A stretch of 64,000 nt of DNA from positions 32,001-96,000 of IMG/VR virus record IMGVR_UViG_3300025010_000004; one strand, 5' to 3'. This document shows positions 2,641-48,897 of this stretch, piece after piece (position 1 is the stretch's first letter; every line of letters begins with the position of its first letter). Source of the DNA: a virus. The notes below the pieces were generated by a model. It saw only the letters and a program-made list of their open reading frames with translations, searched no databases and had not been told where the DNA came from. A program made the translations under genes and the position numbers.

Positions 2641-2676
2641 TTTGTCACCTCCTTGTGGGTAGAACTTGTTCTACTT

Positions 2677-4032
2677 CTAGAATGCCAGATCTTCAAATTT
2701 ACAAACATCAAACCTTCTCAACAATTTAAACGGTTTAAGGGCCGGCTCGTTAGGTACTGACTGAAAATTCCTAAAAGCTTTGTATGCCACTGTAGACGTT
2801 CCTGCTTCCTTGTCGCCATTTTCCTGTTTGAGGATAAGGCATAGATCGCAGTCCGCAATTATTCCTCCACCCCACCTAATCTTATCTTCTTTTTCGTCTA
2901 ACTGCACTGGTGTTATAATCCTGCAGTCGTTGTTTCTGGCGAACGTTTTAAGGTCTCTACTTCTAGCCAGAAGGTATTCCCATGATGCTAATGTTTTGTC
3001 TCCACCTCCCCTCGGAACTAACGAGATATAGTCTAGTACAAACGTTCGGACATTCTTCATGTCCACCATCATCTGCATGTAAAGGAATAATTTGTCCCAA
3101 GACCCAGGCTTGTCTGGTATAAAGAATCTATTTTTCTTAGGGGCAAAATGATCCCAGAACAAAGGCCACCACTTGTCGGCATCTTCATTCTTAGTCTGCT
3201 CAATGAAATCTTTCATGTTAGGATTAAAATCACACAAATGACGGACTTCGGCCTCTCGCAGGGCTAGCCGCTGTTCATTTGTTAGCATATTACTGGTTAT
3301 TAGCCCAACATTAATTTCACTTTTAGATGCAAGTATCCTCATCTTAACTTCTGTCTGACTCATCTCGTAAGAGATGTAACAAGAAGACCCTTCATAATTT
3401 TCATGCCCGTAGGTTAGAAACTGTAGAGCTAGTAGCGATTTACCAGCTTTACTAGGAGCACCTACTAATGTTAAACTTTTTTCTGCAAAAGGACCATGCA
3501 TATCTAGCGAAGTCAGCCCAGACTTTCTGAAATTGTACTGGACGCTCTTACCAGCAAGGCGGACCATATCACCAGAATCTAGGTTATCTCCAGCCCCATG
3601 TTGGAACATACTTTCGTACATCTCTTTCATAACAGCCACCGCGTTGTCTTCGTCCCGCTTGTCCACTGAGTCTACTAGCTTTCCAGCGCCGTCTAGTATG
3701 CACCTAAACTGATACTGAGTATGTAGTTTTTTAATTAGATCATCCGTGGTGATGCCTGATGTGTCCTTGGCTTTTATGTCTGAAATAAGATCTACGTAGA
3801 ATCTCTGCTTGTCTGGGTTGGCTACCCTGTTTGTAATCTCCATCTTTAGAACGTCCCACCCAGGAAGTTGATAATGGGTAGTAAAATGAGTGCCTATGAT
3901 GGTGTATATGTTCTGAAGCTCTTTGTTTCCGAATAGCTCTGTAGGAACTGCCATCAATAATTCTGGAGATTTCGATTCTACTATTTTTTTCAGTATCAGC
4001 ATCTCTGCTTGTGTATTTACTATTTTTGACAT
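2677..4032 (-). CDS. DnaB-like replicative helicase
   Basis: Walker A GAPSKAGKS, SYEMS, Walker B FVLDYI, PVQL. Confidence 0.9.
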   Translation of the reverse strand: MSKIVNTQAEMLILKKIVESKSPELLMAVPTELFGNKELQNIYTIIGTHFTTHYQLPGWDVLKMEITNRVANPDKQRFYVDLISDIKAKDTSGITTDDLIKKLHTQYQFRCILDGAGKLVDSVDKRDEDNAVAVMKEMYESMFQHGAGDNLDSGDMVRLAGKSVQYNFRKSGLTSLDMHGPFAEKSLTLVGAPSKAGKSLLALQFLTYGHENYEGSSCYISYEMSQTEVKMRILASKSEINVGLITSNMLTNEQRLALREAEVRHLCDFNPNMKDFIEQTKNEDADKWWPLFWDHFAPKKNRFFIPDKPGSWDKLFLYMQMMVDMKNVRTFVLDYISLVPRGGGDKTLASWEYLLARSRDLKTFARNNDCRIITPVQLDEKEDKIRWGGGIIADCDLCLILKQENGDKEAGTSTVAYKAFRNFQSVPNEPALKPFKLLRRFDVCKFEDLAF

Positions 4033-4137
4033 AGTTGCTCCTTACTGGCGTTTTTATGAGTTGTATATTTGATTGTGGAATAAGTTGTAGTTAATTAACA
4101 GAATGGAGATGCAAGTGAATCATCAAAATGAAGGCGT

Positions 4138-4166
4138 ATTATACCACAGCAATTGATAAATGTCAA
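4138..4166 (-). promoter_or_regulatory. sigma-70 consensus promoter for the helicase/primase operon
   Basis: Minus strand TTGACA-17-TATAAT with TGTGG before the -10 and an A-rich UP tract. Confidence 0.85.
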
Positions 4167-4248
4167 GCTTTATTTTTAACTTTTTTGTGGTCAATACCAC
4201 TTATTTTCGGGGAATATAAAATTATTTTTCAAAAAGTGAAAATAAAGC

Positions 4249-4405
4249 TTGACAAAATCGCAAAAGTGTGGTATAATACAATCTTCGAGCCAAAGCGAAG
4301 AAGATTGCTAATAGGTTGGTTTTAAGGTTTACTGTTTATAGCCTTTTCTTTTACCTTTACCCTGTGTCTACCCCGCCCGAAGGGCGGGAGGCGTTTTAAT
4401 GAGAA
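4249..4405 (+). ncRNA. promoter + GA/GAA hairpin cassette, copy A (putative small antisense-direction RNA)
   Basis: TTGACA-17-TATAAT, then AATCTTC-GAGCCAAAGCGAA-GAAGATT hairpin, then a 47-bp tail identical to 23438-23484. Confidence 0.55.
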
Positions 4406-4628
4406 ATTTATCAATCTTAGCTTTATTCTCAAGTGTATCTATCAAGTCTTCACGGTCTTCTATAATACTACAAAGGTCGTAATTCTCTTCTTCAAGGTCT
4501 TCTATCTCTTCCCTCAACCTATCATTCTCATTTTCATTAAACTTTGAACGTTCATACTCACAAGTAACGCACATACTTCTAGGGCTTAGCTCATGTACTT
4601 CTCTATCGCATTGGTAGCATCGTTTCAT
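4368..4628 (-). CDS. hypothetical Zn-finger/acidic coiled-coil protein
   Basis: Two CxxC, acidic heptads, strong RBS; C-terminus reads into the cassette tail. Confidence 0.65.
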   Translation of the reverse strand: MKRCYQCDREVHELSPRSMCVTCEYERSKFNENENDRLREEIEDLEEENYDLCSIIEDREDLIDTLENKAKIDKFLIKTPPALRAG

Positions 4629-4653
4629 TTTACCTCCTTCGGTAGAACATGTT

Positions 4654-5094
4654 CTACCCTGCCAATAGTTCCTTAGTTATTTTAGCGGCAACCGCTCCGT
4701 CGTATAGACCAGCGTAGTTTTCTTTAAGGAACTTCATAACATCTTTAAGTTCCACCTGGCCCTCTCCAGCGTCACGCGTAACTTTTATGTACTTATGCGC
4801 AAGGGCTGTCAACTCATCTGTGCTAAGCTGCTTAGGAAGATATCCATTCAGGATAGCTATCTCAGCTTCCCTAGCATCAATATACGATTTAACGTCAGGT
4901 AGCCTATCAGAATACCTTATGCACTCGTTAGCATTATTTATAAACTTTTTAACTACGGCCACAAATTCGGCGTCTGAGGGGTTTTTATTTACCTTAGTGG
5001 CCTCACCTATTAGCGTGCCTAATAAGTCCTTTCTGAGGCCATCCTTGGCCCTCAGAGCACCTATTCTGTCAGCCCTAACATCGTCTATTAACAT
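4654..5094 (-). CDS. GatB/YqeY domain protein
   Basis: EAEIAILNGYLPKQLS.DEL, VMKFLKENYAG.YDG. Confidence 0.85.
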   Translation of the reverse strand: MLIDDVRADRIGALRAKDGLRKDLLGTLIGEATKVNKNPSDAEFVAVVKKFINNANECIRYSDRLPDVKSYIDAREAEIAILNGYLPKQLSTDELTALAHKYIKVTRDAGEGQVELKDVMKFLKENYAGLYDGAVAAKITKELLAG

Positions 5095-5698: not shown

Positions 5699-5716
5699 TT
5701 TTACCTCCTTGTAGTG

Positions 5717-7547: not shown

Positions 7548-7556
7548 AAAGCTCCT

Positions 7557-7862: not shown

Positions 7863-7891
7863 ATAGCCTCCTTTGGTGGGTAGAACATGTT

Positions 7892-8563
7892 CTACCTTCT
7901 TTTGTACCCATCAACCTCGTAGAAGATGGCGTTGGTAACATCGCACATAGTAAACTTACCACCGAACACTCCGGCAGTGTCTAGATTAATCCTGTTTTCG
8001 CGTATTTCTGGGCCATACTCGTTAGCTGAGTGCCCGTGGATTACCTTCTTACCGAAGTCATGAAATGAGTATAAGAATTCTCCTCTTATCCATGTCATAT
8101 CTTCTTCAGTTTGCTCTTCTAAAGGAATGCCAGGACGGAGCCCAGCGTGAACAAATAGGTACTCTTCAGTCTCGTACCTATACGGTAGGTCGTTTAGAAA
8201 TTTGTAGTGCTCTTTAGGGAAGTCCTCTATAAACGGCCTTTTAAGCATGCCTGCATTGTAATCTCCTAGGTAGCTTTTAATTGTTGTGTTACCACCATTG
8301 AACAGAAATATGTGGTGGGACAGTCTTCCTTTCAAATATTCTAGTAATAGGTCTTCGTGGTTTCCCCTCAACACTATAGTTTTTGGGAACAACTCTTGTA
8401 TTTTTATCAGAATATCTATCATCTTTTTACTATCAGGCCCTCTGTCGATGAAGTCTCCTAGGACTATTAGCCTGTCTTCTTTGGTAAGCTTAGCCTTTTG
8501 GAGAAGTTGTATGAATTGGTTGTAACACCCGTGTATGTCCGATACTACTAGTAGTCTCTCCAT
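7892..8563 (-). CDS. calcineurin-like Ser/Thr protein phosphatase (metallophosphoesterase)
   Basis: SDIHG, GDFIDRG, RGNHE, FVHAG, HGH, LDTAG. Confidence 0.93.
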   Translation of the reverse strand: MERLLVVSDIHGCYNQFIQLLQKAKLTKEDRLIVLGDFIDRGPDSKKMIDILIKIQELFPKTIVLRGNHEDLLLEYLKGRLSHHIFLFNGGNTTIKSYLGDYNAGMLKRPFIEDFPKEHYKFLNDLPYRYETEEYLFVHAGLRPGIPLEEQTEEDMTWIRGEFLYSFHDFGKKVIHGHSANEYGPEIRENRINLDTAGVFGGKFTMCDVTNAIFYEVDGYKRR

Positions 8564-11311: not shown

Positions 11312-11339
11312 TTTACACCTCCTAAAGGTAGAATATGTT

Positions 11340-11831
11340 CTACTTCTTAAATAAATTTCCGCAGCATTTAAGCTCTGGGCACACCCCGTTTCTGAACTCA
11401 CATTCCCTAACCATGTACTTGGGTAGGTAAGGGTCTACTAAAGCAACAGCTTCCTTAATAGCTTGCATCACTTCTTGTGTTTCTTTAGATGCTTGTCCGC
11501 ACAGCCTCTTTCGGGACATATTGATAAGTGCTTCGGCGTTAATTAACATTGAATGATTTATCTTAGTTAGTCGGTTAGCTAACTCACCGCCTCTATCTTC
11601 GCGGTTAGTGCCTACAAAATGCTCAACCCCAAATTTATGACGCACGAGATGAACGGAAATGAAGGTCATTATGTTCGTAATAGAACACCAGAACCACTGG
11701 GTCCGTATTGGGCTATGCATATTTCGATATATCTTATCTAGAGTCATTTTACTTTCTCTACCCCGCATGGTGGCAGAGCAAGCGGCTCTTAAAATTCGTT
11801 CGTCAGTCAACTTTGTAACTGTTACTTCCAT
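11340..11831 (-). CDS. thyX: flavin-dependent thymidylate synthase
   Basis: HSPIR, VHLVRH, NAEALINMSRKRLC, C-terminal CxxRxGxCPE. Confidence 0.85.
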   Translation of the reverse strand: MEVTVTKLTDERILRAACSATMRGRESKMTLDKIYRNMHSPIRTQWFWCSITNIMTFISVHLVRHKFGVEHFVGTNREDRGGELANRLTKINHSMLINAEALINMSRKRLCGQASKETQEVMQAIKEAVALVDPYLPKYMVRECEFRNGVCPELKCCGNLFKK

Positions 11832-16125: not shown

Positions 16126-16180
16126 ATGAAATATCCTCCTTGTGTATTGCTAGGTTGAAGTAGAACTTGTTCTACCCTTG

Positions 16181-19367: not shown

Positions 19368-19769
19368 TTAGCCGATGATTACAGCGCAGAAATCAGCAGG
19401 CTGTGCCGCAGGCTTACGCGGTGCCGGAGCCTTGGGAGCTGCATAGCAGCGAGGATCTGCGAAATCGAAGGCATTGTACTCTTTAACAGCAGCGACGATT
19501 TTTTCCCACTCAGCTTTGGTACATTCAACTGCGGAATCGTTGCTTTTCGCCTTGGAGCCACGCAGCCAGATAACGTTCTTCTCATCTGTGTCGCGTGCCG
19601 GGTGGCTGTTGGAAGCAAGAACGATGCCGTTGCTGGCAACGAACTTACGGGGGTCAAGGCTCCGCACGTCACCGAAGTCGCGTCCTTTGTGTGTCTGCTC
19701 CAGCACTTTAAAGAGCACCTTCGTAAAGTTGGGAACGACTTGTGCGGTAATCTTGATGTGTTTTCTCAT
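19368..19769 (-). CDS. EQTH-family paralog 8 with DFCAVIIG tail
   Basis: Start revised to ATG 19769 after AAGGAGG; KHIK...LEQTH...WLRG...AVKEYN. Confidence 0.85.
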   Translation of the reverse strand: MRKHIKITAQVVPNFTKVLFKVLEQTHKGRDFGDVRSLDPRKFVASNGIVLASNSHPARDTDEKNVIWLRGSKAKSNDSAVECTKAEWEKIVAAVKEYNAFDFADPRCYAAPKAPAPRKPAAQPADFCAVIIG

Positions 19770-19832
19770 GGTAAATCCTCCTTTTGTTTGTATGCTGTTT
19801 AGGTAGAACAAGTTCTACCTTCCCAACAGTGG

Positions 19833-23484: not shown

Positions 23485-23497
23485 TGTAGAACATGTT

Positions 23498-25844: not shown

Positions 25845-25879
25845 TGGATGTTACCTCCTTTATTTAGGTAGAACATGTT

Positions 25880-26182: not shown

Positions 26183-27271
26183 TTATTCTTTCGCTTTTAT
26201 ATTTAGCACAGGTTTTATGAAATCAACTACATCAATAGTAATACCCTCCTGCGCCTTCATGACGTAGTTAATGTCTTTGTATGCCTCTGGAGCCTCATCT
26301 AGTATGCTCCTATCTGTGGAACAAACAACGCCTTCCATCTGGCCTACGAATTTATCGTAGTCAAGATTCTTCTTGGCGGCGTTTCTGCCCATAGTTCGTC
26401 CACACCCGTGAGACGCCGATGAAAGAAACTTTTCATTACCAAGTCCTTTGGTGATGTACACACCATCCCTCATATTAGCAGGAATTATGCCAAGTTGATG
26501 TGCGTCGGCTGGCGTAGCACCTTTTCGGTGCAGCACTCCTTCTTTTGTAATAATTGCGTGGTTATGGTTTTCGTTAATTAGAAGATTGCTCTTGTATGTG
26601 ACACCGAGAATCTTACATATTTTGTTTATCATTTTTAACCTGTTATATAACGCCCACTCTAACGCAAAATTCATATCCCCTAAGTAGGACAACCCAAGGT
26701 CTGATAATAAAGGAAACATTCTTCCTTGTTTCATGTACCACCCGCCTATTGTATGCCCAACGTTACGACTTCCTGAATGAATAGTCACACAATACGTGCC
26801 AGTATTTTGGCTTATCCCTATCTCTATGAAGTGATTGCCCCCTCCTAGAGTACCTAGCTGCATAACAGATTTTTCTTTTACTCTCTGTTTCACTTCTTTA
26901 GGCATGTGAGAGTGGATAACATATTCAAAATGATAGTCTGACTTATCAAGAGATGAAAATCCAGTAGGGATGGTTTTAACTATATCATCGTATAACTGTT
27001 TAAGGTTATCCTTTGATAGCTCATACTGAGGTATGTTTGTGTCAACCGAGCACATACCACATCCCACGTCGAAGCCTACGAAGCTAGGAGAGATCATGCC
27101 GTCAAGCAAGGCCACTCCGCCGATTGGAAGATCATAACCAGCGTGAACGTCAGGCATAATAGCCAATTTTTTAAGACATTCCAATGAAAGAACGTCATAA
27201 ATCTGCTGCTGCGCTGACTGCTCTATTTCTTCCATCGGCACCATAGACTGTAGTTTGTCAAGCTTGCTCAT
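26183..27271 (-). CDS. rtcB: RtcB-family RNA ligase
   Basis: MPDVHAG, DVGCG, GGGNHFIE, HSGSR, NHN, HRKGA, SHGCGR, DEAPEAYK. Confidence 0.96.
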   Translation of the reverse strand: MSKLDKLQSMVPMEEIEQSAQQQIYDVLSLECLKKLAIMPDVHAGYDLPIGGVALLDGMISPSFVGFDVGCGMCSVDTNIPQYELSKDNLKQLYDDIVKTIPTGFSSLDKSDYHFEYVIHSHMPKEVKQRVKEKSVMQLGTLGGGNHFIEIGISQNTGTYCVTIHSGSRNVGHTIGGWYMKQGRMFPLLSDLGLSYLGDMNFALEWALYNRLKMINKICKILGVTYKSNLLINENHNHAIITKEGVLHRKGATPADAHQLGIIPANMRDGVYITKGLGNEKFLSSASHGCGRTMGRNAAKKNLDYDKFVGQMEGVVCSTDRSILDEAPEAYKDINYVMKAQEGITIDVVDFIKPVLNIKAKE

Positions 27272-29933: not shown

Positions 29934-30068
29934 AATTAAATTCTCCTTTGTGTTAGTTTGTAAGTAGAACATTTTCTACTTTTTAGTTAATAAAAAATGC
30001 TTATATTCGGTATATAATACATATAGGAGCAGTTGGATTCGGCTCAAATAACTTATACTGGAGACGCG

Positions 30069-31325
30069 ATGAACCATTTTTACGTTTACTGCTACACAAA
30101 CCCAACAAAACCTGGAAGGTTCACTTTCCCTAATACAAATCTTTCTTTTCTATATGAACCTTTTTACATCGGTAAAGGTGCTTTAGATAGGATGTATAAT
30201 CATGTTAATGAGTCAATTAAAAAGAAAAATAAAACATGGAAAAATAAAACAATTTTATCTATATTAGAATCTGGGTACAATCCTAAAGACTTTGCATTTA
30301 AGCTGGCTGTACAATTAACAGAGGAGGAGGCATACTCAGTAGAGGAAACGTTAATAGCCACTATCGGCAGGCTGTCTACTAGAAAAGGCCCACTACTTAA
30401 TATACGAACTGGCGGGTTAGGGAGTAGTAATAAAAGTTATTGGAAAACAACTAATAAACTAACCCCAATACAAGAATACGAATGTGTATCTTTATACTTA
30501 AATGGTGAATCTATTAGTACATTATCAGCTAGGTTTGGGTTATTTAAAACCGCCATCCGAGGTATATTACTACGGCACGATGTAACAATAGTACGTAAAC
30601 CCACAGAAAAAAGAAGCAAGACTTTAAGTCTCATCCCAAATATTCTAGAAGACTACGAAAACGGTATGTCATCTATAAAAATAGGACAAAAATACTGTAT
30701 ATCAAAACGCACTGTATTATCAGAGCTTAGGAAAGCAGGAGTAACTATGAAAGAGCCTGCTTTCTATAAGACTATAAAAGATGAAGATGTACCTAATATA
30801 AGAGCCGCCTTTTTACGTGGAGAACGTGTAGAAGCTTTGGCCAAAAAATATAAAGTATCCACTAATACTATAAATAGGGCTATTCGTTATAATGAAGTAG
30901 TAACAGCAACTGGAAAATTAAAAATTAAAACTAACATTACCAGGCATAACCTGCTTAAAAAACTAACCGAAGACCAAGAATATCAACTAGGTCAAGACTA
31001 CATAGCTGGTATGTCATCTAGTGAATTAGCAGCAAAGTATAACGTTTTCTACACAACAGCCCTAGCAATTTTGAAACGACTCAACATACAAACTAGGCCT
31101 AGTTCAACACCAGACAAAACAACAATTGACCTAACACCAGAAGTTATAGAAATGTACCAGTCAGGACTAAGCTCTCTCGATATATTCAGAAAGTTGCCAG
31201 TAAGTCGCAACACAATTTTACGCATTCTTCACAGAAATAATGTACCACTTAGGCAAAGTGGAAAGCAGCCTACTAAGGTTATAGGTAGTAGTGATGCAGA
31301 AGAACTTGATGCTATGATGCAATAG
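30069..31325 (+). mobile_element. free-standing GIY-YIG-like homing endonuclease with tandem HTH repeats
   Basis: FYVY...PFYIGKG..R...H...E..LI...LLN; five Y/F..G.S...LA.KY-like HTH repeats; opposite strand, AT-richer than flanks. Confidence 0.7.
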
Positions 31326-32075: not shown

Positions 32076-32133
32076 TTGTTACCTCCTTTGTTGTGGTTGT
32101 GTTGCAAATTGAGAAGTAGAACTTGTTCTACTT

Positions 32134-32484: not shown

Positions 32485-33012
32485 TCACCAGTCGCCTCCG
32501 CCTCCGCCACCTCCGAAATCTCCACCGCCTCCGCCGAAGTCGCTACCGCTGCTACTTCCACTGTCTCCTCCACCGCCGAACATCGAGCCTAGCGCAAATC
32601 CTGCTGCAGCAGCAAGGATAGAGTCGCCTGTTTCGCTGTGGCTGCGTTTGTGTTTACGTGCTTCCTCTTCCTCGCGCTCTTTTCGACGCTGTGTAGGCGA
32701 CTTTGTTTCAGCCGGAGTAGGCCTTGGTGTAGGTGGTTGTTTATACATAGGAGTTGGGTTGGAAAAATTACCAGCAACATACCCGGCTGTAGCAACTCCT
32801 AACGGAGCGTAGTTAGCTCCATTACGCTCGTTGTAGCTCTTTACTTCACTTCGGTAAGCAGCCACCTCAGCTAAGCGCCTTTCTTCGTCCTTCCGGCTCT
32901 GTTCGGCTTTTCTGCGTCTTCGGTTTCGTATAGCCAGAGCTATGGAAAGCCCGACGAAGAACACAAAAGCTACTACGAAAACAAGAATACAAACTCTTGC
33001 AAGTGCATCCAT
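32485..33012 (-). CDS. membrane-anchored protein with Gly-rich GGGDFGGGG..GDW tail
   Basis: N-terminal TM; tail typical of TPM-domain proteins. Confidence 0.75.
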   Translation of the reverse strand: MDALARVCILVFVVAFVFFVGLSIALAIRNRRRRKAEQSRKDEERRLAEVAAYRSEVKSYNERNGANYAPLGVATAGYVAGNFSNPTPMYKQPPTPRPTPAETKSPTQRRKEREEEEARKHKRSHSETGDSILAAAAGFALGSMFGGGGDSGSSSGSDFGGGGGDFGGGGGGGDW

Positions 33013-33027
33013 TTCGCCTTCTCCTTT

Positions 33028-33621
33028 CTATTTAATAGTGTTTAGTACTGCGTCAACGGCATCAACGAACCCTTTGTCGAAGTTGCCTTCCTTAAACGCA
33101 ATGCGCATTTTGTCTCTGACTATCTTACCGGCGGCAATATCGGTTAGCTTCTCTTCCAATCCACGGCCAACCTCAATCCTCATTTTACGATCACCGCGAG
33201 ATGCAAAGATAAGCACACCATCGTCTTTGCCTGACTTGCCCAACTTCCACGTTTCGCATACCGTCATTGTGTACGACTCAATATCAGAGTCGTTCAGGGA
33301 CGGTATCGTAAGAATGGCTATTTGTGGGCCTCCACTTTTTAAGGTAGAGATGAGCAGTCTGTTCAACTGGTTTTTAGCCGAGTCAGAAATCATCCCGGCA
33401 TAGTCATTGACCGGAGCTTTTAGCTCAGGTATTACCGCCTTGTTGACGGGAGTTGTGTCACTGCACCCGGCTGCCATTCCTAAGGCAAAGATAACTAACG
33501 CCAATGCTATTGGGGCTAATGCTTCCTTTAACCTGTACAAGCGATAACTGCAGGAGTACCCTGGCTGCCACACTTCTCGCAACCCACCTAGCCAGTATTG
33601 CAGGCGTTCTTTCATGCACAT
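33028..33621 (-). CDS. TPM-domain (YgcG-like) lipoprotein
   Basis: VNDYAGMIS, WKLGKSGKDDGVLI, RIEVGRGLE; lipobox-like AAGC. Confidence 0.88.
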   Translation of the reverse strand: MCMKERLQYWLGGLREVWQPGYSCSYRLYRLKEALAPIALALVIFALGMAAGCSDTTPVNKAVIPELKAPVNDYAGMISDSAKNQLNRLLISTLKSGGPQIAILTIPSLNDSDIESYTMTVCETWKLGKSGKDDGVLIFASRGDRKMRIEVGRGLEEKLTDIAAGKIVRDKMRIAFKEGNFDKGFVDAVDAVLNTIK

Positions 33622-33626
33622 CTCCT

Positions 33627-34250
33627 TTACGGTTTATTGTTTGATGGAGCTGCGCCACTGAAGCTGACTTTGGGCGCAATCTTCGCTCCCTCGTCAGACT
33701 TGAACGGTGTCTTCTTTTCCAGGTTAAGCAGGAGCGAGTTTGTAATTGAATTTGGGAACGTTCGTATCATGGTGTTGAATTCAGCCACTACTTTGTTGTA
33801 GCGCACACGTTCCGTGTTTATCCGGTTCTCGGTTCCCTCCAATTGGCTTTGCAGATTCATAAAACTTTCATTGGCCTTGAGGTCGGGGTATTTTTCAGTT
33901 ACCATCATAAGCCGAGACAAGGCGGAGCCGATTGTTTGTTGCTGCGCCTGGAACTTGGCCATTTGCGCTGCATCCTGAAGACCTTTAGGATCAAGTTTGA
34001 TTTGACCTACCGAGGCGCGTGCTTGAGCAACCTGTGTAAAGGTTTCTTTTTCGTGGGCAGCGTAGCCCTTTACGACCTCTACGAGGCTGGGGATGAGATC
34101 TGCACGCCGTTGATAAGCAGCCTCAACATCGGCCCACTTGGCAAACACTTGCTCTTCCTTCGCTTGGATGGAGTTGTAGCCGCACCCGCTGTTAATCAAC
34201 ATGAACGCCGCCATTGCCAACATCAGCCCTACTCTTACGAAACTCTTCAT
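33627..34250 (-). CDS. lemA: LemA family protein
   Basis: GYN, QRRADLIP.LV, HEKET, YPDLKAN, LEGTENRI, FP. Confidence 0.95.
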   Translation of the reverse strand: MKSFVRVGLMLAMAAFMLINSGCGYNSIQAKEEQVFAKWADVEAAYQRRADLIPSLVEVVKGYAAHEKETFTQVAQARASVGQIKLDPKGLQDAAQMAKFQAQQQTIGSALSRLMMVTEKYPDLKANESFMNLQSQLEGTENRINTERVRYNKVVAEFNTMIRTFPNSITNSLLLNLEKKTPFKSDEGAKIAPKVSFSGAAPSNNKP

Positions 34251-34298
34251 TTGTTCCTCCTTTGGTGTGATAGTAGAACAAGTTCTACTTGGTTAAGG

Positions 34299-34625
34299 TT
34301 AACGCATGCGATGCATCTCATCAAGGTCAACGTACAGTACGTCGCCTTCGTTACCAAAAAGTCCAAAAATGTTTATTCGTTCTTCTGTTGACACCACCTC
34401 AAGCATGGCCCAGTCATTGCTGTAGGTCGCAGACGCTCCTTGTTCTCTGCTTCTGTTTTTCTCGTCCCTACCCCCGTAATACTGCTTGACTATTACTACT
34501 TCGTCAAGCCCTACATGTGGGTTGTTTTGGTACTTAACGAACTGTGGCACAACAATCGCTAGTATCATACCAACAATTGCTACCACAATAAGCAACTCTA
34601 TCAACGTAAATCCACGCGATTTCAT
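34299..34625 (-). CDS. type IV prepilin-like protein
   Basis: KSRG/FTLIELLIVVAIVGMILAIVVPQF class III signal peptide. Confidence 0.85.
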   Translation of the reverse strand: MKSRGFTLIELLIVVAIVGMILAIVVPQFVKYQNNPHVGLDEVVIVKQYYGGRDEKNRSREQGASATYSNDWAMLEVVSTEERINIFGLFGNEGDVLYVDLDEMHRMR

Positions 34626-35594: not shown

Positions 35595-36017
35595 CTATTG
35601 TGCTTCGTTTTTGTCGTAGATAGCGGCATACAAGGGTATATTGGCCGTGCAGCACTGTGAGTTGTAGGCTGCCAAATCGTAGCCTACAACTGCGAACGCC
35701 TTGTACATCATTATCCATAGCTTGAGTTCGGCTATCCTTTTGCGGACTGCCTTGCCGAACACGTAGAAGCGGATGGTGCGTATGATTGGGAGGCGCAGAA
35801 TAGCATATTCTGCTACTGTTGGTAGTCCTTCGTATCTATTACATCTATGCCCTTTTATACTTATCCACGGGCAGGAGTCGCACTTAAGATTACTTACTTT
35901 GCACAAAGAACAACCCGTATAGGTCGTCTTGTGCGTGTATTTACGATACTCCACTATAAGCTGTTCCATAGCCTTGATATTCTCTTTGACGTTTACCGGG
36001 GCCTTAAGCAGTCGCAT
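35595..36017 (-). CDS. hypothetical Cys-containing protein
   Basis: ORF track; CSLC...CDSCP. Confidence 0.55.
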   Translation of the reverse strand: MRLLKAPVNVKENIKAMEQLIVEYRKYTHKTTYTGCSLCKVSNLKCDSCPWISIKGHRCNRYEGLPTVAEYAILRLPIIRTIRFYVFGKAVRKRIAELKLWIMMYKAFAVVGYDLAAYNSQCCTANIPLYAAIYDKNEAQ

Positions 36018-37380
36018 TTTTGATTTCTCCTTTTTCTATGAGGGTTTTAGTGTATAACAGCCCGTCTTCCCTTGTCAAGAACTTTTCTTCCATTTGGTCT
36101 TCATACAGCCGTTGGAGGATAGCGCCGAAATGTTTTCCAGGCTCCATGCCCATATCAATAAGGTCTCGGCCAAGAATAATCGGGGTGACTTGTGATTTTA
36201 TTTCCTCGAACACGCGCATGACCTCAGAAATCCTAGCTGAGTTTTCAGGCTCATATTCAGCGGCTACAACACCACCACGTCCAAGCCTATCCGCCTTGTG
36301 CAATTTTACTAGCTTATACATGTCAACCGAGGCGGCCAACTTGCGCACAGCCTTACGGCTCACCCCTGCTTTCTTAAAATCGTAAGGCCTCATGTGATGC
36401 TTAATGAGATTTATAGCGGATTCAGTAAGTCCTATCTCATTTGTTAGCCGAGCGATAGCCTTTTCAGCCAAAGAAGTCTCTTCCGCGTGACCTTTGAAAT
36501 GAATCTTACCGCTGTCTTCTGTGTTGACCTCATTAGGAACAAGCCCCTTCCCTAAATCATGAAATAAGAGGGCCAGCATAATATCCAATTCCCTGTCAAT
36601 AACAGGAATGGCATCTATTGCCATAAGGGTGTGATTATACACGGAACCTTCTGGATGATACGTGCTTCCTTGTTCAATTTTCTTGGTAGCGACCAGCTCA
36701 GGAAACAGTACATCGAGAATGTCCATAGCCTCAAGCGTCTTGAAGAAAACGGATGGAAGAGGAGCGTTCATTAGAACTCGCACCACTTCATTAAACACTC
36801 GTTCCTGAGGCAGAGCTTTAACTTTAATTGGGCCGTGTACTTTGCATAGCGCCATTGTTTGAGCTTCTATGTTCATGAACGGGTAAATAGCCTTGAACCT
36901 CGCTACTCTCAATATACGCAAAGGGTCTTCCATGAATGTGCCAACATTCACGTGCTTTATGCGCAAGATACGAAGGTCAGGTATCCCATTAAACGGGTCT
37001 TCGAACTTACCCGTCAACGGATCGAGGTAAATAGCGTTCATCGTCAAGTCCCTACGAACCGCTGCCAAGCTCAACGGCAGCTCTTCGCGTATCCTAGCGG
37101 TTAGATCACGGTGTCCTTCGCCAGTTTGCTCATCAAGCCTCGGCAGGCTAACGTCAATATCTTTGACTTTGTAAACTCCGTATTGCTTGCCTACGTAGTT
37201 GACCTCACCGAAAGTTTCGAGAACTGCTTCGAGCTTCTCGGCTGAGAGGTTGAAAACTTCAATGTCTATGTCGGTGGAAGGTATGCCTAGGAGTAAATTT
37301 CTTACGTGGCCTCCTGTATAAAAAACTGAACCTCCCGCCTTGTGAATTGCCAACGATAGTTCAAGCGCAAACTTTTGCAT
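36004..37380 (-). CDS. cca: CCA-adding tRNA nucleotidyltransferase with HD domain
   Basis: GGHVRN...DIDIE, RRDLTMNA, EDPLRILR, ERV..E, HPEG...HT, LFHDLGK. Confidence 0.92.
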   Translation of the reverse strand: MQKFALELSLAIHKAGGSVFYTGGHVRNLLLGIPSTDIDIEVFNLSAEKLEAVLETFGEVNYVGKQYGVYKVKDIDVSLPRLDEQTGEGHRDLTARIREELPLSLAAVRRDLTMNAIYLDPLTGKFEDPFNGIPDLRILRIKHVNVGTFMEDPLRILRVARFKAIYPFMNIEAQTMALCKVHGPIKVKALPQERVFNEVVRVLMNAPLPSVFFKTLEAMDILDVLFPELVATKKIEQGSTYHPEGSVYNHTLMAIDAIPVIDRELDIMLALLFHDLGKGLVPNEVNTEDSGKIHFKGHAEETSLAEKAIARLTNEIGLTESAINLIKHHMRPYDFKKAGVSRKAVRKLAASVDMYKLVKLHKADRLGRGGVVAAEYEPENSARISEVMRVFEEIKSQVTPIILGRDLIDMGMEPGKHFGAILQRLYEDQMEEKFLTREDGLLYTKTLIEKGEIKNATA

Positions 37381-37628
37381 CTTCTTTCTCCTTATGGTAG
37401 AATATGTTCTACTTGTGCTTCTGTCCTTAGTATCACATGCAAGATTACGTGTGCAATGTTATAAGTAAACTAAAGACCCTGCCTCTAATTTGCCAGTAAA
37501 CTGGCGTTTCGAGTTCTCGACTAAGTTTAATTTATCCTTAGAACACCTTTATCTCTTGCATGTGAGACTAAAAACAGAAGCTAGTTCTGTTTTTAGTTTT
37601 ACGGATCAAATCAAGCCGCTATCTGGTA

Positions 37629-38811: not shown

Positions 38812-38849
38812 TGATTGTTACCTCCTGAGGTTTGATTGTAGAACAAGTT

Positions 38850-39185
38850 CTACCTGTTAACTATAGTGTTGTAAAGTTCATCCGGCGTCAGTTCTCTGTA
38901 CCTTCCAGTAGGGTTAGCGCTATGTATATTCTCATATTCAAACATACGAGGCTGCGCACATATTTCAACAGCTGATACTTTAGCAGCCTCAATTGTGTCC
39001 TCCAAATCCTGATCGTCGCCGGACAGTGTGGTAATGTACTTACCGATCATGTCCTTTTGCATCTTAACAGCGCAGTCACGTTCGTACTGCGTAACTAGGT
39101 GGCTCTCCATGCGCCAGATAGGAGTATCATTTGAGCACCCTTGCACCATAACTGATACTGCTAAGATTAAAATAAATAGTTTCAT
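38850..39185 (-). CDS. putative lipoprotein
   Basis: Lipobox VQGC. Confidence 0.65.
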   Translation of the reverse strand: MKLFILILAVSVMVQGCSNDTPIWRMESHLVTQYERDCAVKMQKDMIGKYITTLSGDDQDLEDTIEAAKVSAVEICAQPRMFEYENIHSANPTGRYRELTPDELYNTIVNR

Positions 39186-39526: not shown

Positions 39527-40103
39527 TACGATGCCCTCCTAAGGCGTCTGTTGAGGTAGAACAAGTTCTACCATGTGCTGTAAAGCCCTCATAATTAGTG
39601 GTAACATTTTTAAAGCTGAGTGAGGATACACTTCGACGCTAAATTAGCGCTGGGTATACGTCTGCGCTAAATTGGACGTAACTATGCCCAATTATTTAGA
39701 TAGTACAGTACAAACGTTGCGGTTGATTGGTTTAGCAGGAGGTTAAATATTTATCTACATGATGGGAGTTATACGGTGTGAAGAATTCTACGGTGGGGGA
39801 TACTATGATGGAGAATCGCCGGAAGAATGAAGAAGATTTTAGACGCTTCATTAGGGAGAGTTTGGTGGCACGGGCTATGAATTTCTTATTGCAAAGCTGG
39901 ATGAATTGGTTTTTGAGGACTTTTGTGGACTGGTACATGGGTGAGGCCTCCTTGGCTTTCGCCGGTCAGTGCCTGGTTGTACAATTACAACCAAGGCTAT
40001 ACTACACCGCTTTTGTTATCTCAGAGCGGCAACTGAGGTTCCCGCAACGGATTGTGGCAACATAAGTTACCCACGCTCCCTGCGGTCAATCGTTATACTT
40101 TAA

Positions 40104-41352: not shown

Positions 41353-41517
41353 AAGTCACCTCGTAAGATGTAGAAGATGTTCTACCTATCGTAAAGCTTG
41401 TCTGATATTGATTCAACAAAATTCTCGTCTTCGGCGTAGTACTCCCCGAACTCGTGAAGGAAGTGCTTAAGGAATTCTATTTCATCGTCTGTAAAGAATA
41501 TTTTTCTGCCCACGTAG

Positions 41518-42195: not shown

Positions 42196-42648
42196 TTACC
42201 ACTTTAGGATAGGAGTATACCCGAGCGACTTTATCTCAGACATTTCTTCCTCAGTGGGAATGCCTACGTACAAGTTAGTGTTATACGAACACAACTCACG
42301 CATTCTCTTCGCTATAGCAGCATCATACTTCCACACTGTATAGATTCCATCGGCGAGCATCACAAGCACATAGCTTGCTCTTGTTAACTCAAGCACCGGA
42401 TCTACGTTGTGGGCTATTACTTTCAGAATGTTAAGGTGTGCCTCAGCAACCTCAGTAGTCTCTGCCAAACCCCCGTGAAAGTTGGCTGAAAGAACTACTG
42501 TAAAGTCTGGGATGTGCAACAAGGCGTCTGCCTGCCACATCCTACCCTTAGCCTTAGGCGCTCCAGGAACCATCTTGAGATGAGAAGCAACCCTCGCCCC
42601 TCTAAGTAGTAGCGACTGGTAGTAATTTGGATGCTTTTGGACGTTCAT
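42196..42648 (-). CDS. hypothetical protein
   Basis: ORF track. Confidence 0.55.
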   Translation of the reverse strand: MNVQKHPNYYQSLLLRGARVASHLKMVPGAPKAKGRMWQADALLHIPDFTVVLSANFHGGLAETTEVAEAHLNILKVIAHNVDPVLELTRASYVLVMLADGIYTVWKYDAAIAKRMRELCSYNTNLYVGIPTEEEMSEIKSLGYTPILKW

Positions 42649-42678
42649 TGTGAACTCCTTTGTAGGGTAGAATATGTT

Positions 42679-43371
42679 CTACTTCGCTATAATTAAACTA
42701 ACAGCGTTGTCCGCTATAGCAGTAAAATCTATAGTGCATTCCGCCGCCGCCCTCGCCGCCGCGCTCGCCGCGCTCGCCGCCCTCGCCGCCGCCTCCGCCG
42801 CGCTCGCCGCCCATCCCGCCTCCGCCGCCCTCGCCGCCGCCTCCGCCGCCCTCGCCGCCCATCCCGCCTCCGCCGCCCTCGCCGCCCATCCCGCCCCCGC
42901 CGCCTCCGCCGCCGCCCCCGCCGCCTCCTTGGAAGGGGTTATAGCGTATTGTTTAGCAGCGTTTATTGCTTCTCTAACGCGCGTATCTGAAGGGCGTGTG
43001 TCTTCGAATACACTAAGTACTGACTCAGCGCAAAGCGCCGCAAACATAGTTCTTACTTGTGCATCAATAGCGCTACCTACCCACGTAGGAGAACTTAGTT
43101 CACGTAAGGTGGTAAGTTTAAAGCACCCGACTTTACCAAAATCACTACACACTACTTTACCGGAAGCTTCCCATAGTCTAGGACTGTGTATGTTAGCGTG
43201 TATAGGATTGAGAAGGAATGCTAAGGTTGCGTTACTATAAGCGTGTAACACATCTGATGAGCAAAGACTGGGGTTGTCTTTTTTATTTTTCTTATGGGTG
43301 ACATTTTCGCCCCAGACTGTTGTTTTGTGGTAAGTTGTGTTGTCCTGTTCAGTTAGTTTGAAAAGTTTCAT
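42679..43371 (-). CDS. phage protein with Imm5-like helical segment and Ala-rich repeats
   Basis: CAE.VL..FE...P.D.RVREAI.AA followed by AARAAEAGW repeats. Confidence 0.65.
   Translation of the reverse strand: MKLFKLTEQDNTTYHKTTVWGENVTHKKNKKDNPSLCSSDVLHAYSNATLAFLLNPIHANIHSPRLWEASGKVVCSDFGKVGCFKLTTLRELSSPTWVGSAIDAQVRTMFAALCAESVLSVFEDTRPSDTRVREAINAAKQYAITPSKEAAGAAAEAAGAGWAARAAEAGWAARAAEAAARAAEAGWAASAAEAAARAASAASAAARAAAECTIDFTAIADNAVSLIIAK
42741..42927. repeat. GC-rich coding tandem repeat (Ala-rich)
   Basis: Repeats of ccgccgccctcg / cccatcccgcct. Confidence 0.9.
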
Positions 43372-43415
43372 TTTATCTCCTTACGGTAGAATATGTTCTA
43401 CTTCATGACACTTAA

Positions 43416-43691: not shown

Positions 43692-43766
43692 TGGCGTCCC
43701 TTACAGGATTTGAACCTGTGTCTCTCGCGTGAAAGGCGAGTGTCCTGTCCACTAGACTAAAGGGAC
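43692..43766 (-). tRNA. tRNA-Glu(UUC), CCA encoded
   Basis: GTCCCTT/AGGGAC acceptor, CTCGC-CTTTCAC-GCGAG anticodon arm, GGTTCAAATCC. Confidence 0.92.
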
Positions 43767-44160: not shown

Positions 44161-44373
44161 TTTACCTCCTGATAGAAAAGAGTTAGTAACCGCTACTTAG
44201 CTTACGAGGGCCTCGGATTTCGCACCCAACCATTAGAAATGGCCTTGTAGTTTGGCGGGCCGGAGCAGGCCCGCATTTATTCAGTTGTATGTTGGTGTAT
44301 GTTAGAGCATTGTTATACACCTCCTTTCTCTATGCCGGAAAGGAGTCCAGCAACTCAAGTGGTAGAACATGTT

Positions 44374-44613
44374 CTACTTACTACAAAACTGCCTAACTGC
44401 ATTAACTACTTTGACGTAGGCGTAGCCTGTGAAGTAATTGTTGGCCACTTCTTTCAGAAACTTCTTGGACGGAGCTGTGGTAACGTCCATCTTTAGGTGC
44501 GCAGACAACGCACTCTTGAATTCTTCATCCGTCATTTTACCATCAACGAACTCTCTCATTATCTGCTTGGTCATTGGTTGACTCATGGCCTTATCCCCAT
44601 GCTCATAAAACAT
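44374..44613 (-). CDS. hypothetical protein
   Basis: ORF track; stop lies inside a palindrome. Confidence 0.5.
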   Translation of the reverse strand: MFYEHGDKAMSQPMTKQIMREFVDGKMTDEEFKSALSAHLKMDVTTAPSKKFLKEVANNYFTGYAYVKVVNAVRQFCSK

Positions 44614-45444: not shown

Positions 45445-45844
45445 GATGTGCTCCTTGCTATTTATTTTTAAGCACCAAAGAACTTTCTTTCCGCTTCTTT
45501 CTGCTTTCTGGCTGACTTACGATCTACCTTGCTCATAACGCCTCCTTAGTCATTGAATGTGTGCCATGATAACCGACCATGCAGAAGGTAGAACATGTTC
45601 TACCTAACTTATGTTGTTTGATTTCATTTTCAAAGCTTCTTGTAGGGACTAAGGTAGCCTTGAAAATAACATCAAAGGTATTTTGGAGGCAGACTATTAG
45701 CGGTCTGCCAGCGCACCAGCGACAACTGGAAACAGTTTTAAGTCATGCTTAGGACTATAGCATTGCGCCGGAGCAGCAGGGGGCTACAGCGGGAAGCATC
45801 CATTTGATCGTTTTCATGGTGATTCCTCCTTTCTTTTGGGTTAA

Positions 45845-46069
45845 TTAACAGTATTTACCATCCAAAGGGATGAATGTGACTATGTTTCTAGCGCCGTCTG
45901 GGATATGTTGAAAGTAATCTTGAAGACAGCACACCCAGGCCTCTTCTGTGGTTTTGCTAATACCATGTCCTGGCGTTCTCCAATATCCTTTATCAGTAAT
46001 GTATATGTGCCCTTTAGTTTCTAAGGGAAGGGCTTTAATTTCTTCTTGGGTTAGTGTTTGAGGTGGCAT
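45845..46069 (-). CDS. hypothetical protein
   Basis: ORF track, RBS AGGAG. Confidence 0.55.
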   Translation of the reverse strand: MPPQTLTQEEIKALPLETKGHIYITDKGYWRTPGHGISKTTEEAWVCCLQDYFQHIPDGARNIVTFIPLDGKYC

Positions 46070-46120
46070 TTAACGTCTCCTAAGATGTAAGAAAGCGAGT
46101 AGAACATGTTCTACCTTTAG

Positions 46121-46310: not shown

Positions 46311-47084
46311 GCACTAACTAACCTATCCGTTAACCTTTAAGGTGATGATTAAGGTAATAACCCCAAATCCTACCGACCCTCGGTTTCCCCAAACATTATA
46401 TAGAATATCAATAATAACAAAGTTTATGGGGGTTATGAAACACTACCTTCACCCAAAACAACCAAAACATAAATCCAATTCTCCCCATACCGCCTTGCCA
46501 TATGTGATTTCAACTACTTAGCAACTACTCTCAAGGTCATTTTCAAGGCCACATTCCAGCAATTTTAGGTGCCTCTATTGCCACCTGGGAGTTGAAACCC
46601 AACCGTCCGGAATGTGACCTTGAAAGTGACCTTGAAGGTTATCTTTTAAAAACCTTCAAGGTCAAGGTAGAACATGTTCTACCCACCGAAAATCAACTCC
46701 ACCTCCGCTAGCGCACAATTAGCCTTTTATCAGGAACTACGATAACCGGCACGATAAGGCCCCGAGCTATAACCCCGTCCTTGAACAGGTTGAATTCATT
46801 TCTGGTATTGGACATAATGCGGTGGATTTTCTCTTTGCCTCTTAGCAGGTCTTTCATTTGCTTCCCTCCTAGGTTTGTGAGGTAGAACATGTTCTACCTT
46901 TTAGTTGTTGGTTTGTTTCTGAAGTAGAGAGTCGATGCGATGCACACAACGGTACACCACGCTAAGAACAATAGCGTTTCTTCTAGGGATGTGAGATGTG
47001 GCATTTGGTAATCCTCCTTATTTTTTAATTAAAGCCGAAGGCGGCTAAATTAAAAAATTATAATGTTCAAATCAAAAATAAAGC

Positions 47085-47200
47085 TTGACAAAATCGCAAA
47101 AGTGTGGTATAATAGAGGCATATCTTGAGTGAAACGAAAGATATGCGGTTATAGGTTTATAAGCCTTTAGGTATGCCTTACCCTAAACCTTAACCTATCT
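47085..47200 (+). ncRNA. promoter + GA/GAA hairpin cassette, copy C
   Basis: Promoter identical to copy A; GCATATCT-TGAGTGAAACGAA-AGATATGC. Confidence 0.5.
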
Positions 47201-47670
47201 ATATTTTCGTGCCGATTCCTGAATGATTCCGAAGGGTTACACAATACACTAATGATTACGGGTATTTATGTGTAGCCTTTATCAGCTTTATTAACCTTCC
47301 AGGCACCTTCAATGTTACCTTGCAATTTATTCAGGCGTAGCCAAGTAATGTGCAAGGTAATGTTGAAGGTAGAAATCAAGTTACTTTCCTTTCAAAGGTA
47401 GAACATGTTCTACCTTCATAGCTTCTGTTTTAAGGCGCAAAAAAGCCGATCTAACGCAATTATAGGTCAGTACCTGGGCATGGATACCCAAGATATGGCT
47501 ATAGTGGTTAGAATCGGCTTGTGGCTTTTTCATAGTTAATTTCCTTATAGCCCTTGTTTCGGCTATTTAGTGTATGTGGTTTATGCTTCAAATTTGACTT
47601 GTAAGGTAATTTGATTAATCACCTTAGCATGAGCTAGAGTAACTAATCAAGTGACCTTACAGGCATGGTT

Positions 47671-47710
47671 AAGGTGCCTGTAAGGTGCCTGTAAGGTGCC
47701 TGTAAGGTGC
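47671..47710. repeat. 11-bp tandem repeat AAGGTGCCTGT x3.6
   Basis: Read directly from the sequence. Confidence 0.9.
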
Positions 47711-47714
47711 ATAT

Positions 47715-47909
47715 TTAGGTGGTCAGGTCGATGTATTGACCACAGTTAGTCAGGCAAAAGTCAAGGTTAACGTGGTCAGGATTAACACCTGCTTTCAATT
47801 CAAAGACTTCATGTGCATAGAGGCACTGGCACTGCATATGCTCATAGTGCGTACATAGCGTACAAACTTTACGTGTACGCGCATTTTCATCGGCGATAAT
47901 TCTAGCCAT
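47715..47909 (-). CDS. small Cys-rich protein
   Basis: MARIIA... after AAGGAG; CTLCTH..C.C. Confidence 0.55.
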   Translation of the reverse strand: MARIIADENARTRKVCTLCTHYEHMQCQCLYAHEVFELKAGVNPDHVNLDFCLTNCGQYIDLTT

Positions 47910-48056
47910 GGTTAATGCTCCTTTGCTACGTTCTTTTCTACGTAGCACGCTCAAATTTAGCTTCTAAAGGCTTTTCTAAAGGTCACTGGTATAGATACTA
48001 GTAACCTTTAGAAAAGCCTTTAGACTGCCATATCGACAGCCTAAAGGCCCTTGTTG

Positions 48057-48770
48057 TTAGCCGTTAACCGCTTCTGCCTCCGGCTTTTCTTCTGCAGGAA
48101 TAGCGCCTTCTTTAGCTTTCAGCTCCCTCTGCTTTTTCTCTTTTTCGGCCTTTTCAGCGTCAAGATCTGGACGCAACGCGTCTGCTATGGCGGTCAATGC
48201 CGGTTTGATTTCTTCCTTCAGCTCCGGTGACAGAAGCGCCGATTCTTCAAGCACTTTCAATGCAGCAAAGACCTTTGCAAGGTTCTTTTCGTGTTCCGTA
48301 GCGATAGGAGCAAAGGCGGGTTTTTTAGCCTTTACTACTTCGCCGGTAGTTTCATCCTTTACCGGCTCGCCGTCTTTCATTAGCACTTCTTCCGTAAAGT
48401 AAAGGTCGGTTATATTCCGGTCGATGTATTGCTGTAAAGCTTTCAGGCCGGAAGCGCGCTTGTTACCGTGCTTTATTGCTGCGGTAGTCCAGCTGTAAAA
48501 CTTTGCCGGATTGTTGGGGTTAACGGTGCGGTGTTCTTCCGGAAAGGTATCATAGATGCGCTGTACGAAAAGCACTGTGTTTGCTTTTCCCGTCGAATAA
48601 TCGGTAGTCATCGGGAAAATCGGTTTAAACATTTCAAACAATTCCTTGCTTCCCTCGTTAATTGCGTCAATCCCCTTGGAGAGGTTAAGCGCCTTTTCTG
48701 ACGCGATTTTCCCCATTTCAATGAGGTTGACTGCCGCTGAACCTACAAGAATTTCCGCTGTGTTTGCCAT
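48057..48770 (-). CDS. hypothetical protein, first gene of the leftward accessory block
   Basis: Strong RBS; lies downstream of palindrome 48828 and the sigma-54 sites. Confidence 0.7.
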   Translation of the reverse strand: MANTAEILVGSAAVNLIEMGKIASEKALNLSKGIDAINEGSKELFEMFKPIFPMTTDYSTGKANTVLFVQRIYDTFPEEHRTVNPNNPAKFYSWTTAAIKHGNKRASGLKALQQYIDRNITDLYFTEEVLMKDGEPVKDETTGEVVKAKKPAFAPIATEHEKNLAKVFAALKVLEESALLSPELKEEIKPALTAIADALRPDLDAEKAEKEKKQRELKAKEGAIPAEEKPEAEAVNG

Positions 48771-48897
48771 GGTGATAACTCCTTTTCTGTTGTCTGCTTT
48801 TGGCAGGGTATTCGCTTCCCGTTATGAGTAGAACATGTTCTACTTGTGGAAAGCTACGTTGTTTTAATGAGGATGCACTAATCCCTTGGTCTTACGT

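Follow-up and report, generated by a model that had tools for sequence, protein, structure and literature searches.

Unrelated palindromes in one shared layout: putative sites of a fast-evolving regulator in a distant T5-like phage and its relatives

What reads a short palindrome that recurs, with its arms unchanged, at one gene junction after another along the replication arm of a phage genome? The question is raised by IMG/VR virus record IMGVR_UViG_3300025010_000004, a 113,294-bp phage contig with overlapping ends. Bases 32001–96000 of the contig, a stretch of 64,000 nucleotides (nt), form the analysed window, and coordinates refer to this window unless they are given as genome positions. 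The element has the form GTAGAA-N4-TTCTAC. Comparison with relatives, the main new result, points to three unrelated palindromes occupying one shared layout, and the palindromes and their reader are probably a fast-evolving phage regulator and its putative binding sites.

The palindrome set is real and strongly non-random. The window holds 25 exact copies, between positions 2659 and 48843, one more than the 24 reported in a preliminary description of the same sequence, and 100 dinucleotide shuffles of the window contain none. The whole genome holds 29 copies, of which three precede the window (genome 7791, 19636, and 25433) and one follows it (genome 101606). It was correctly described that no copy lies beyond 48.9 kb in the window, but one copy outside it is in the late arm. 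The constancy of the arms was confirmed: only two variants with one mismatch were detected genome-wide, and isolated 7-mer half-sites are not above chance in a count over the whole genome. The palindromic unit is organized as 7+2+7 with R...Y flanks and the consensus AGGTAGAACATGTTCTACCT. On the coding strand, the full consensus is a perfect 20-bp palindrome, AGGTAGAAC-AT-GTTCTACCT. The coding-strand centres of 28 copies are CATG (13), CTTG (5), CAAG (4), CATA (4), AATG (1), and CATC (1), in agreement with the earlier observation that both CTTG and CAAG occur. The flank pair is more often A..C than G..T in a by-eye count, that is, without selection for pairing, and neither the flank nor the seventh pair shows pairing covariation. 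The remaining copy (21895–21910) has the centre GAAG and is positioned in-frame within the open reading frame (ORF) 21656–23032, which encodes 458 residues with a repeated KVEE peptide. This copy is probably a coding coincidence.

The copies are almost confined to the leftward replication and accessory arm, in which genes point in one direction, and 28 of the 29 are non-coding or at gene ends. The preliminary description placed all copies at gene boundaries or between genes, which is correct for most of them, except for the in-frame copy at 21895, but the tie is to the downstream translation start and not to boundaries in general. Twenty-three of the 29 copies are positioned 13–57 nt upstream of a called start, and two more precede a strong Shine-Dalgarno (SD) sequence followed by an ORF of 2 or 22 codons. 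When a uniform rule requiring an SD and a start is applied, 24 of the 29 copies are followed by a start within 60 nt, compared with 17.5% of random positions, and the median distance from palindrome to start is 24 nt. Within long intergenic gaps, the copy is mostly close to the downstream start, as at 37397, 39556, 46099, and 48828. The palindrome does supply the TAG stop codon of the upstream gene, as previously noted, in ten of 28 copies. However, about one third is expected since one frame in three reads G-TAG-AA, and the overlap is a by-product of the reading frame. At approximately ten junctions, the SD starts 2–7 nt after the motif. At these junctions the motif is therefore no upstream activator site of the following gene, and is either transcribed by read-through or holds the start site itself.

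The shared layout became apparent from the relatives of the phage. A close DNA-level match was not found in the phage collection, and searches with TerL, DNA polymerase, and a sigma-like protein described below returned the same four IMG/VR or metagenome relatives only. The four related contigs are all from one metagenome, and an alignment of glutamyl-tRNA synthetase (GluRS) recovered two of them, G004 and G005. Contig G001 (105.7 kb) is syntenic with the window phage, and its proteins are 45–74% identical. The GTAGAA motif was not found in G001, which contains about 26–31 copies of RAAAT-W-GGTAATTACC-W-AWWT. Contig G005 (64 kb) has 85–95% nucleotide identity to G001 and the motif in common with it; the palindrome of both is WGGTAATTACCW. 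The complete genome of G004 (113,142 bp) contains 26 copies of AAC-TTCCGA-N4-TCGGAA-GT. The relatives have 17–37 copies of unrelated palindromes with the geometry observed in the window phage. All three palindrome types start after a head region driven by sigma-70 promoters, and the sigma-70 and late-type promoter motifs stay constant across these phages while the palindromes change. Between G005 and G001, 14 of the 17 G005 sites are common, with invariant cores and diverged flanks. The positions of sites are weakly conserved between distant relatives (odds ratios of 2–4.5, not significant).

A search of 185,579 prokaryote genomes with the 18-mer produced nine matches, each single, where about nine are expected by chance, and the exact 16-mer has single chance matches only in IMG/VR. 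A host regulator box is ruled out because the 18-mer never occurs in more than one copy in any of these genomes. The unrelated palindromes of the relatives and the chance-level frequency of the 18-mer in prokaryotes indicate that the reader is phage-specific and co-evolves with about 30 sites. A plain intrinsic terminator is ruled out as well: two of the six stem pairs are G-C, a U tract is absent after the palindrome, and terminator-like sites in total are at the level of shuffles. The terminator search picked up three copies only, which have weak T runs on the antisense strand. No known RNA families besides tRNAs were identified, and a parS-like or other loading-site role, also suggested previously, received no support.

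The individual copies in the window are described in the order of transcription. The first copy, 48828–48843, is located directly after the sigma-70-driven head, 57 nt before a gene encoding a 237-residue protein (48057–48770). The copy 47398–47413 is within a cluster of small ORFs, 46882–46897 overlaps a TAG stop with the next start at 24 nt, and 46667–46682 is followed by hairpin-rich DNA without an ORF. The copy 46099–46114, just downstream of an array of 12-bp iterons, is 29 nt from the start of 45845–46069. An SD at 40 nt and a 22-residue ORF follow 45588–45603, and a strong SD at 36 nt and a two-codon mini-ORF follow 44362–44377. The next starts are at 14 nt from 43386–43401, 18 nt from 42667–42682 (start of 42196–42648), 17 nt from 41370–41385 (centre CATC), 29 nt from 39556–39571 (gene of a zinc-ribbon protein), and 26 nt from 38838–38853, which overlaps a TAG stop. 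In a 250-nt intergenic gap, 37397–37412 is 16 nt from the start of the CCA-adding enzyme gene. The copies 34273–34288 and 32116–32131 are 22 nt from the start of the LemA-TPM cassette and 40 nt from the next start, respectively. Located between divergent genes, 29964–29979 (coding-strand centre AATG) is 30 nt from the GluRS start. In G001, the junctions orthologous to 29964 and 42667 carry G001's own motif. The start of the Prs-NAMPT cassette is 23 nt from 25868–25883, and 23486–23501 overlaps the TAG codon that ends the NAMPT gene. Next to 23486–23501 comes a non-coding, structured segment facing the antisense sigma-70 promoter at 23315. Beyond the copy within the ORF, 19803–19818 is 33 nt from the start of 19368–19769, and 16160–16175, located 5 nt past a stop, is 34 nt from the next start. 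The copies 11328–11343 (coding-strand centre CATA) and 7880–7895 overlap TAG stops and have the next starts at 16 and 17 nt. The copy 4642–4657 overlaps the TAG stop of 4654–5094, 13 nt before the start of 4368–4628, and 2659–2674 is 2 nt past a stop and 18 nt before the start of a 64-residue gene (2446–2640).

It is tentatively proposed, with confidence that stays somewhat below even, that the palindromes are double-stranded DNA operators of a dimeric phage-encoded regulator that acts as a roadblock or gate. The arms are constant in 28 copies, variants that are compensatory or contain G-U pairs are absent, and only the centre varies. The dyad symmetry continues through the centre, in the 13 copies with CATG as well as in the gapless 10-bp GGTAATTACC core of G001. 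A dimeric reader of double-stranded DNA is a better match than an RNA hairpin for arms that stay constant around a variable centre, as the preliminary description had argued. Furthermore, the predicted stability of the hairpin is not conserved (−3.4 to −8.3 kcal/mol in the window phage, −1.4 to −3.9 kcal/mol in G001, and about −10 kcal/mol in G004), and native flanks promote no hairpin formation, a small effect in G004 being due to shuffling of its extended arms. Both observations are evidence against a role for RNA structure alone.

The operators would be bound by one sequence-specific, probably dimeric phage protein whose rapid evolution is coupled to that of its sites. Starting at a few consensus sigma-70 promoters, host RNA polymerase would transcribe the leftward arm as long polycistronic units. 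With growing amounts of regulator, the approximately 28 sites, located between the stop of one gene and the ribosome-binding site of the next, would be filled, and the bound regulator would block or gate the elongating polymerase in the manner of a stoperator roadblock. The arm would thereby be split into units that are shut down or timed segment by segment. The palindrome-free head of the arm (49000–60300, − strand, about 11 kb) has consensus TTGACA-17-TGnTATAAT promoters on the leftward strand at 52906, 53186, 55459, and 60281 (genome 84906, 85186, 87459, and 92281). Further leftward sigma-70 promoters are located beyond the head at genome 44380, 36166, and 26467, and antisense ones at genome 36249, 55315, and 79085. 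About 40 kb of the arm have no consensus sigma-70 promoter, yet 20 palindromes are located there, and most copies are without an adjacent sigma-70 promoter, as had been noted. Each sigma-70 unit in the arm, including the three antisense ones, reaches a palindrome within 0.17–1.5 kb downstream.

The best candidate for the reader, a tentative one, is a 127-residue protein encoded at 60585–60968 (+), behind an early-type sigma-70 promoter (genome 92492). It had been listed among possible binders before, and its C-terminal part is now predicted to have a DNA-binding fold of sigma region 4. The protein is 52–56% identical to its G001 and G004 orthologues, matches a PHROG sigma factor (E 3e-5), and belongs to a family of proteins of about 125 residues with 58 representatives at E <1e-10. 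A tblastn search against isolated phages produced no match. The AlphaFold model based on 48 sequences has a predicted local distance difference test score (pLDDT) of 87, with 92–98 for residues 70–127; it was used instead of a model from three sequences, which had a pLDDT of 60. Residues 58–127 of the model correspond to region 4 of extracytoplasmic function (ECF) sigma factors (VIA Z 10.6, root-mean-square deviation 1.3 Å, 69 aligned residues), the top 27 entries of the VIA structure search are all sigma region 4, and the helix-turn-helix fold of regions 4.1–4.2 is present. The N-terminus of about 57 residues is formed of two helices, has no Pfam match to region 2, and was barely covered by the structure search. 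The recognition helix, around residues 105–118, differs among the three phages. The half-sites GTAGAAC, GGTAAT, and CGGAAGT are similar to GGAAC-type −35 elements of ECF sigma factors, although the link is circumstantial.

Other candidate binders provided fewer indications. The 237-residue protein at the head of the palindrome cluster (48057–48770) has no Pfam family and near-identical relatives only. No Pfam or PHROG match was found for a 63-residue protein or for the "EQTH" family of paralogues of about 100 residues (8575–35577, −). Members of this family are present in all four phages, and palindromes precede some of their genes. Most small conserved proteins matched no family. Of the other proteins examined, a 430-residue protein turned out to be a GIY-YIG homing endonuclease with a helix-turn-helix array, and a 167-residue protein turned out to be the small terminase.

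Several observations weigh against the operator with a roadblock function. The median distance to the start is 23–24 nt for all three palindrome types, and a pure roadblock predicts no such tie. About eight of the 11 copies in long intergenic gaps are start-proximal. Asymmetric variants of the sites are polar with respect to transcription, with a CACA:TGTG ratio of 8:0 in G004 (p 0.008) and a TT:AA ratio of 14:4 in G001, where the half-site asymmetry has a p of 0.005, and the sites are thus not orientation-free as previously thought. The 4-nt centre is not invariable either: G004 has at least four bona fide sites with an N3 centre, which is awkward for a rigid dimer. The gene of the 127-residue candidate heads the late operon, and the top structural matches of its product are sigma factors, which are monomeric readers of −35 elements. 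The conserved distance to the start, the polarity of variants, and the N3 and N4 centres in G004 speak for a strand-aware process, involving either RNA or a promoter.

It is possible, although rather unlikely, that the palindromes function as RNA operators, in which a hairpin 5′ of the SD would be bound by a phage RNA-binding protein or endoribonuclease. Translation could be repressed or activated, as by a global translational repressor of the RegA type, or polycistronic RNA could be cut into units with 5′ hairpins. Such a function would agree with the placement of the sites: each of the three genomes has 22–24 sites with an SD and a start within 60 nt, compared with 18–19% of random positions, and the minimum distance is 12–13 nt. 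By our own count, the distance from the end of the copy to the start is no more than about 35 nt in 19 of 25 cases, which is inside the footprint of the 30S ribosomal subunit. The polarity of variants relative to transcription and the acceptance of 3- or 4-nt centres in G004 are also in line with recognition of RNA, mini-ORFs and structured non-coding stretches are preceded by copies too, and the phage encodes many enzymes that act on RNA (RtcB, CCA-adding enzyme, PIN-PhoH, and GluRS). However, the usual recognition of RNA by proteins would be inverted, with the sequence of the stem fixed and that of the loop variable, and the would-be loop is itself symmetric. G-U is not preferred over A-C, the commonest G001 variant folds at only −1.4 kcal/mol with an in-context hairpin probability of 0.39, and an RNA-binding candidate was not found among the proteins scanned.

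An unlikely alternative is a phage-specific middle promoter, an element of about 20 bp with the start site at its 3′ edge, at which host RNA polymerase would be reprogrammed by a phage factor. The factor could be the encoded sigma region-4-like protein. Promoters of T7, T3, and SP6 are present in many copies, after stops and before SDs, and differ in sequence between relatives; the palindromes resemble them in copy number, position between stop and SD, and sequence change among relatives. A promoter would also account for the palindrome-free, sigma-70-driven head directly after which the copies begin in three genomes, for the roughly 40 kb of arm lacking a consensus sigma-70 promoter, and for the polarity of the sites. 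About 30 annotated T5 promoters are located at equivalent junctions. Conversely, neither a phage RNA polymerase nor a full sigma factor was found: no RNA polymerase family was matched among the large ORFs, proteins of 526 and 500 residues of no known family have no sequence match in the PDB, and region 2 is not evident in the 127-residue protein. The element is palindromic and has no conserved −10-like partner, a symmetric promoter would work in both directions, and at the approximately ten copies followed by an SD after 2–7 nt the start site would be inside the element.

In a reading that is more doubtful still, a phage protein consisting of region 4 only would dimerize on the palindromes and capture or re-load host RNA polymerase inside operons. 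If true, such landing pads would represent a new form of sigma appropriation, in which the "promoter" is a dyad of −35-like half-sites without a −10 element and the specificity switches between sister phages.

It is very improbable that the palindromes are recombination or module-boundary repeats without a trans-acting factor, kept uniform by copying during cassette shuffling as in T4-type PeSL cassettes. Accessory cassettes are indeed positioned between copies (Prs-NAMPT between 23486 and 25868, LemA-TPM between 32116 and 34273, and a gene of 230 residues between 42667 and 43386), and site positions turn over between distant relatives. The homology of G001 and G005 stops exactly at the motif at 5–6 of 14 shared sites, beside one of which a NAMPT cassette is inserted, and breakpoints are enriched relative to random positions (p 0.002–0.01). 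However, relative to the motif-bearing share of gene junctions there is no enrichment, with about eight expected by estimate and five seen. Repeats of 16–20 bp are short for homologous exchange, the dyad symmetry and fixed SD distance would be left unexplained, and any exchange may be incidental to the actual function.

The phage in which the palindromes are found is, by its terminase and gene content, a distant T5-like phage. Its terminase shares 30% identity with T5-like terminases, and its DNA polymerase shares about 27% with the polymerases of Vibrio T5-likes and Bacillus phages. Products of the leftward arm include DnaB-like and other helicases, ligase, SbcCD, flap exonuclease, DNA polymerase, and NrdD, together with RtcB (26183–27271), CCA-adding enzyme (36004–37380), PIN-PhoH (53204–54595), NAMPT with Prs, tRNAs, and GluRS (28587–29933, −). 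The nearest relatives of GluRS are enzymes of Geobacteraceae with 46–47% identity, and a tRNA-Glu gene (43692–43766, −) accompanies it. GluRS, tRNA-Glu, RtcB, CCA-adding enzyme, and PIN-PhoH form a large kit for tRNA and RNA repair, a possible hint at the host, which by the GluRS might be Geobacteraceae-like. Neither an integrase nor a CI-type repressor was detected among about 110 proteins scanned, and the phage is apparently lytic.

The sigma-70 promoters belong to a sharply conserved family, GCTTGACAAA...TGTGGTATAAT. Perfect sigma-70 promoters directed against the leftward genes are located at 4249, 23315, 47085, and 60340 (+). Downstream of three of them (4249, 23315, and 60340) is a hairpin with the conserved core CGAGCC...GCGAAG, which suggests a family of small antisense RNAs. 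The transcript from the 23315 promoter would run directly into the palindrome at 23486. In G004 (L042-L047), sigma-70 promoters at 9399, 31763, 92203, and 106357 have a +1 hairpin, CGTTCCG-CTGG-TCGGAACG, the stem of which resembles the arms of the G004 palindrome (TTCCG...CGGAA). A late-type promoter motif, AATAAAAA-N10-GGTATATAAT/A, lacks a −35 element and precedes late-arm and a few other genes (30009 and 60557, +; genome 7753 and 108852, +, and 17099, −). In contrast to the palindromes, it is unchanged in G001 (58817, 75560, and 86172). Segment 46170–46310 (−) contains a tandem array of about nine copies of the 12-bp GTTACCTTGCAT with related half-units flanking, and a comparable array, of ACTACTTGCCAT, is located at 744–830 in the relative L014. 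The array could represent origin iterons or an equivalent of the repeat-rich injection-stop region of T5.

The remaining genes of note are accessory. The 430-residue protein with a GIY-YIG nuclease domain followed by an array of helix-turn-helix modules (30033–31325, +) is a free-standing homing endonuclease, encoded against the arm and at a different position in the relatives. The genes of a membrane protein, a TPM-domain protein, and LemA form a host-like cassette (32485–34625, −) between palindromes 32116 and 34273. A pilin-like gene (34299–34625) with an N-terminal methylation motif is just upstream of palindrome 34273. The early head encodes a protein with a NADAR domain, of the type of DarT1-associated antitoxins (50438–50905, −), possibly for counter-defence against DarT-type DNA ADP-ribosylation. 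An early block (55463–59745, −), missing from relatives, encodes three glycosyltransferases, a methyltransferase, and a radical-SAM protein and is a possible module for DNA or surface modification.

The shared gene order and geometry with three unrelated palindromes amount to a natural specificity-swap experiment, and the reader protein can be sought in this lineage by co-variation and cross-binding. If the sites gate transcription, they would show how lytic T5-like phages can time the expression of early genes without encoding an RNA polymerase; for T5, one account still calls the transcription switches unknown (PMC7472727). Orthogonal pairs of palindrome and protein would, in addition, be of use as components of synthetic circuits. 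Dispersed operator-like repeats have been described in a few temperate actinophages, among which the Cluster O case has been unexplained since 2015.

Among known systems, T7-type promoters are identical elements of about 20 bp before genes, genome-specific between relatives, and T5 has dispersed internal early promoters at equivalent junctions. Unlike these, the present element is symmetric and without a −10 or −35 partner, in a phage in which no phage RNA polymerase gene was found. In the temperate phage phiC31, highly conserved inverted repeats bound by repressor c serve as operators in many early-arm intergenic regions. A repressor-c (PF25746) homologue was not found here by Pfam: the 237-residue protein has no match, and its Atlas score of 0.79, a weak lead, is within the chance range. 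Cluster A stoperators, bound by gp71 in L5, are similarly dispersed in about 25–30 copies over short intergenic gaps of transcribed arrays, and their sequence co-evolves with the phage protein between relatives. However, they are asymmetric 13-bp sites of fixed orientation that bind the immunity repressor of temperate phages, whereas the present sites are perfect dyads, with polarity that is mild and confined to variants in the relatives. The SAS/ESAS element of Cluster K mycobacteriophages directly precedes the translation start in some of the genes (PMC4351075), but it has 13 bp, is non-palindromic, and includes the SD, from which the present palindrome is separate at a variable 0–45 nt. The closest described analogue is the 17-bp dyad repeat TGTTCGG-N3-CCGAACA of Cluster O mycobacteriophages, present in more than 30 copies per genome, for which neither a binder nor a function is known (PMC4351075). 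Both repeats have constant 7-bp arms, a variable short centre, and about 30 copies, which are denser toward one end and mostly intergenic within long one-directional gene arrays. They differ in motif sequence, host, and phage type, here T5-like. About one third of the Cluster O copies are in genes, and the Cluster O repeats are described as not closely tied to translation starts (PMC4351075), whereas nearly all copies here precede a start by 12–60 nt. Finally, the members of Cluster O have one motif, whereas the present lineage has three unrelated ones.

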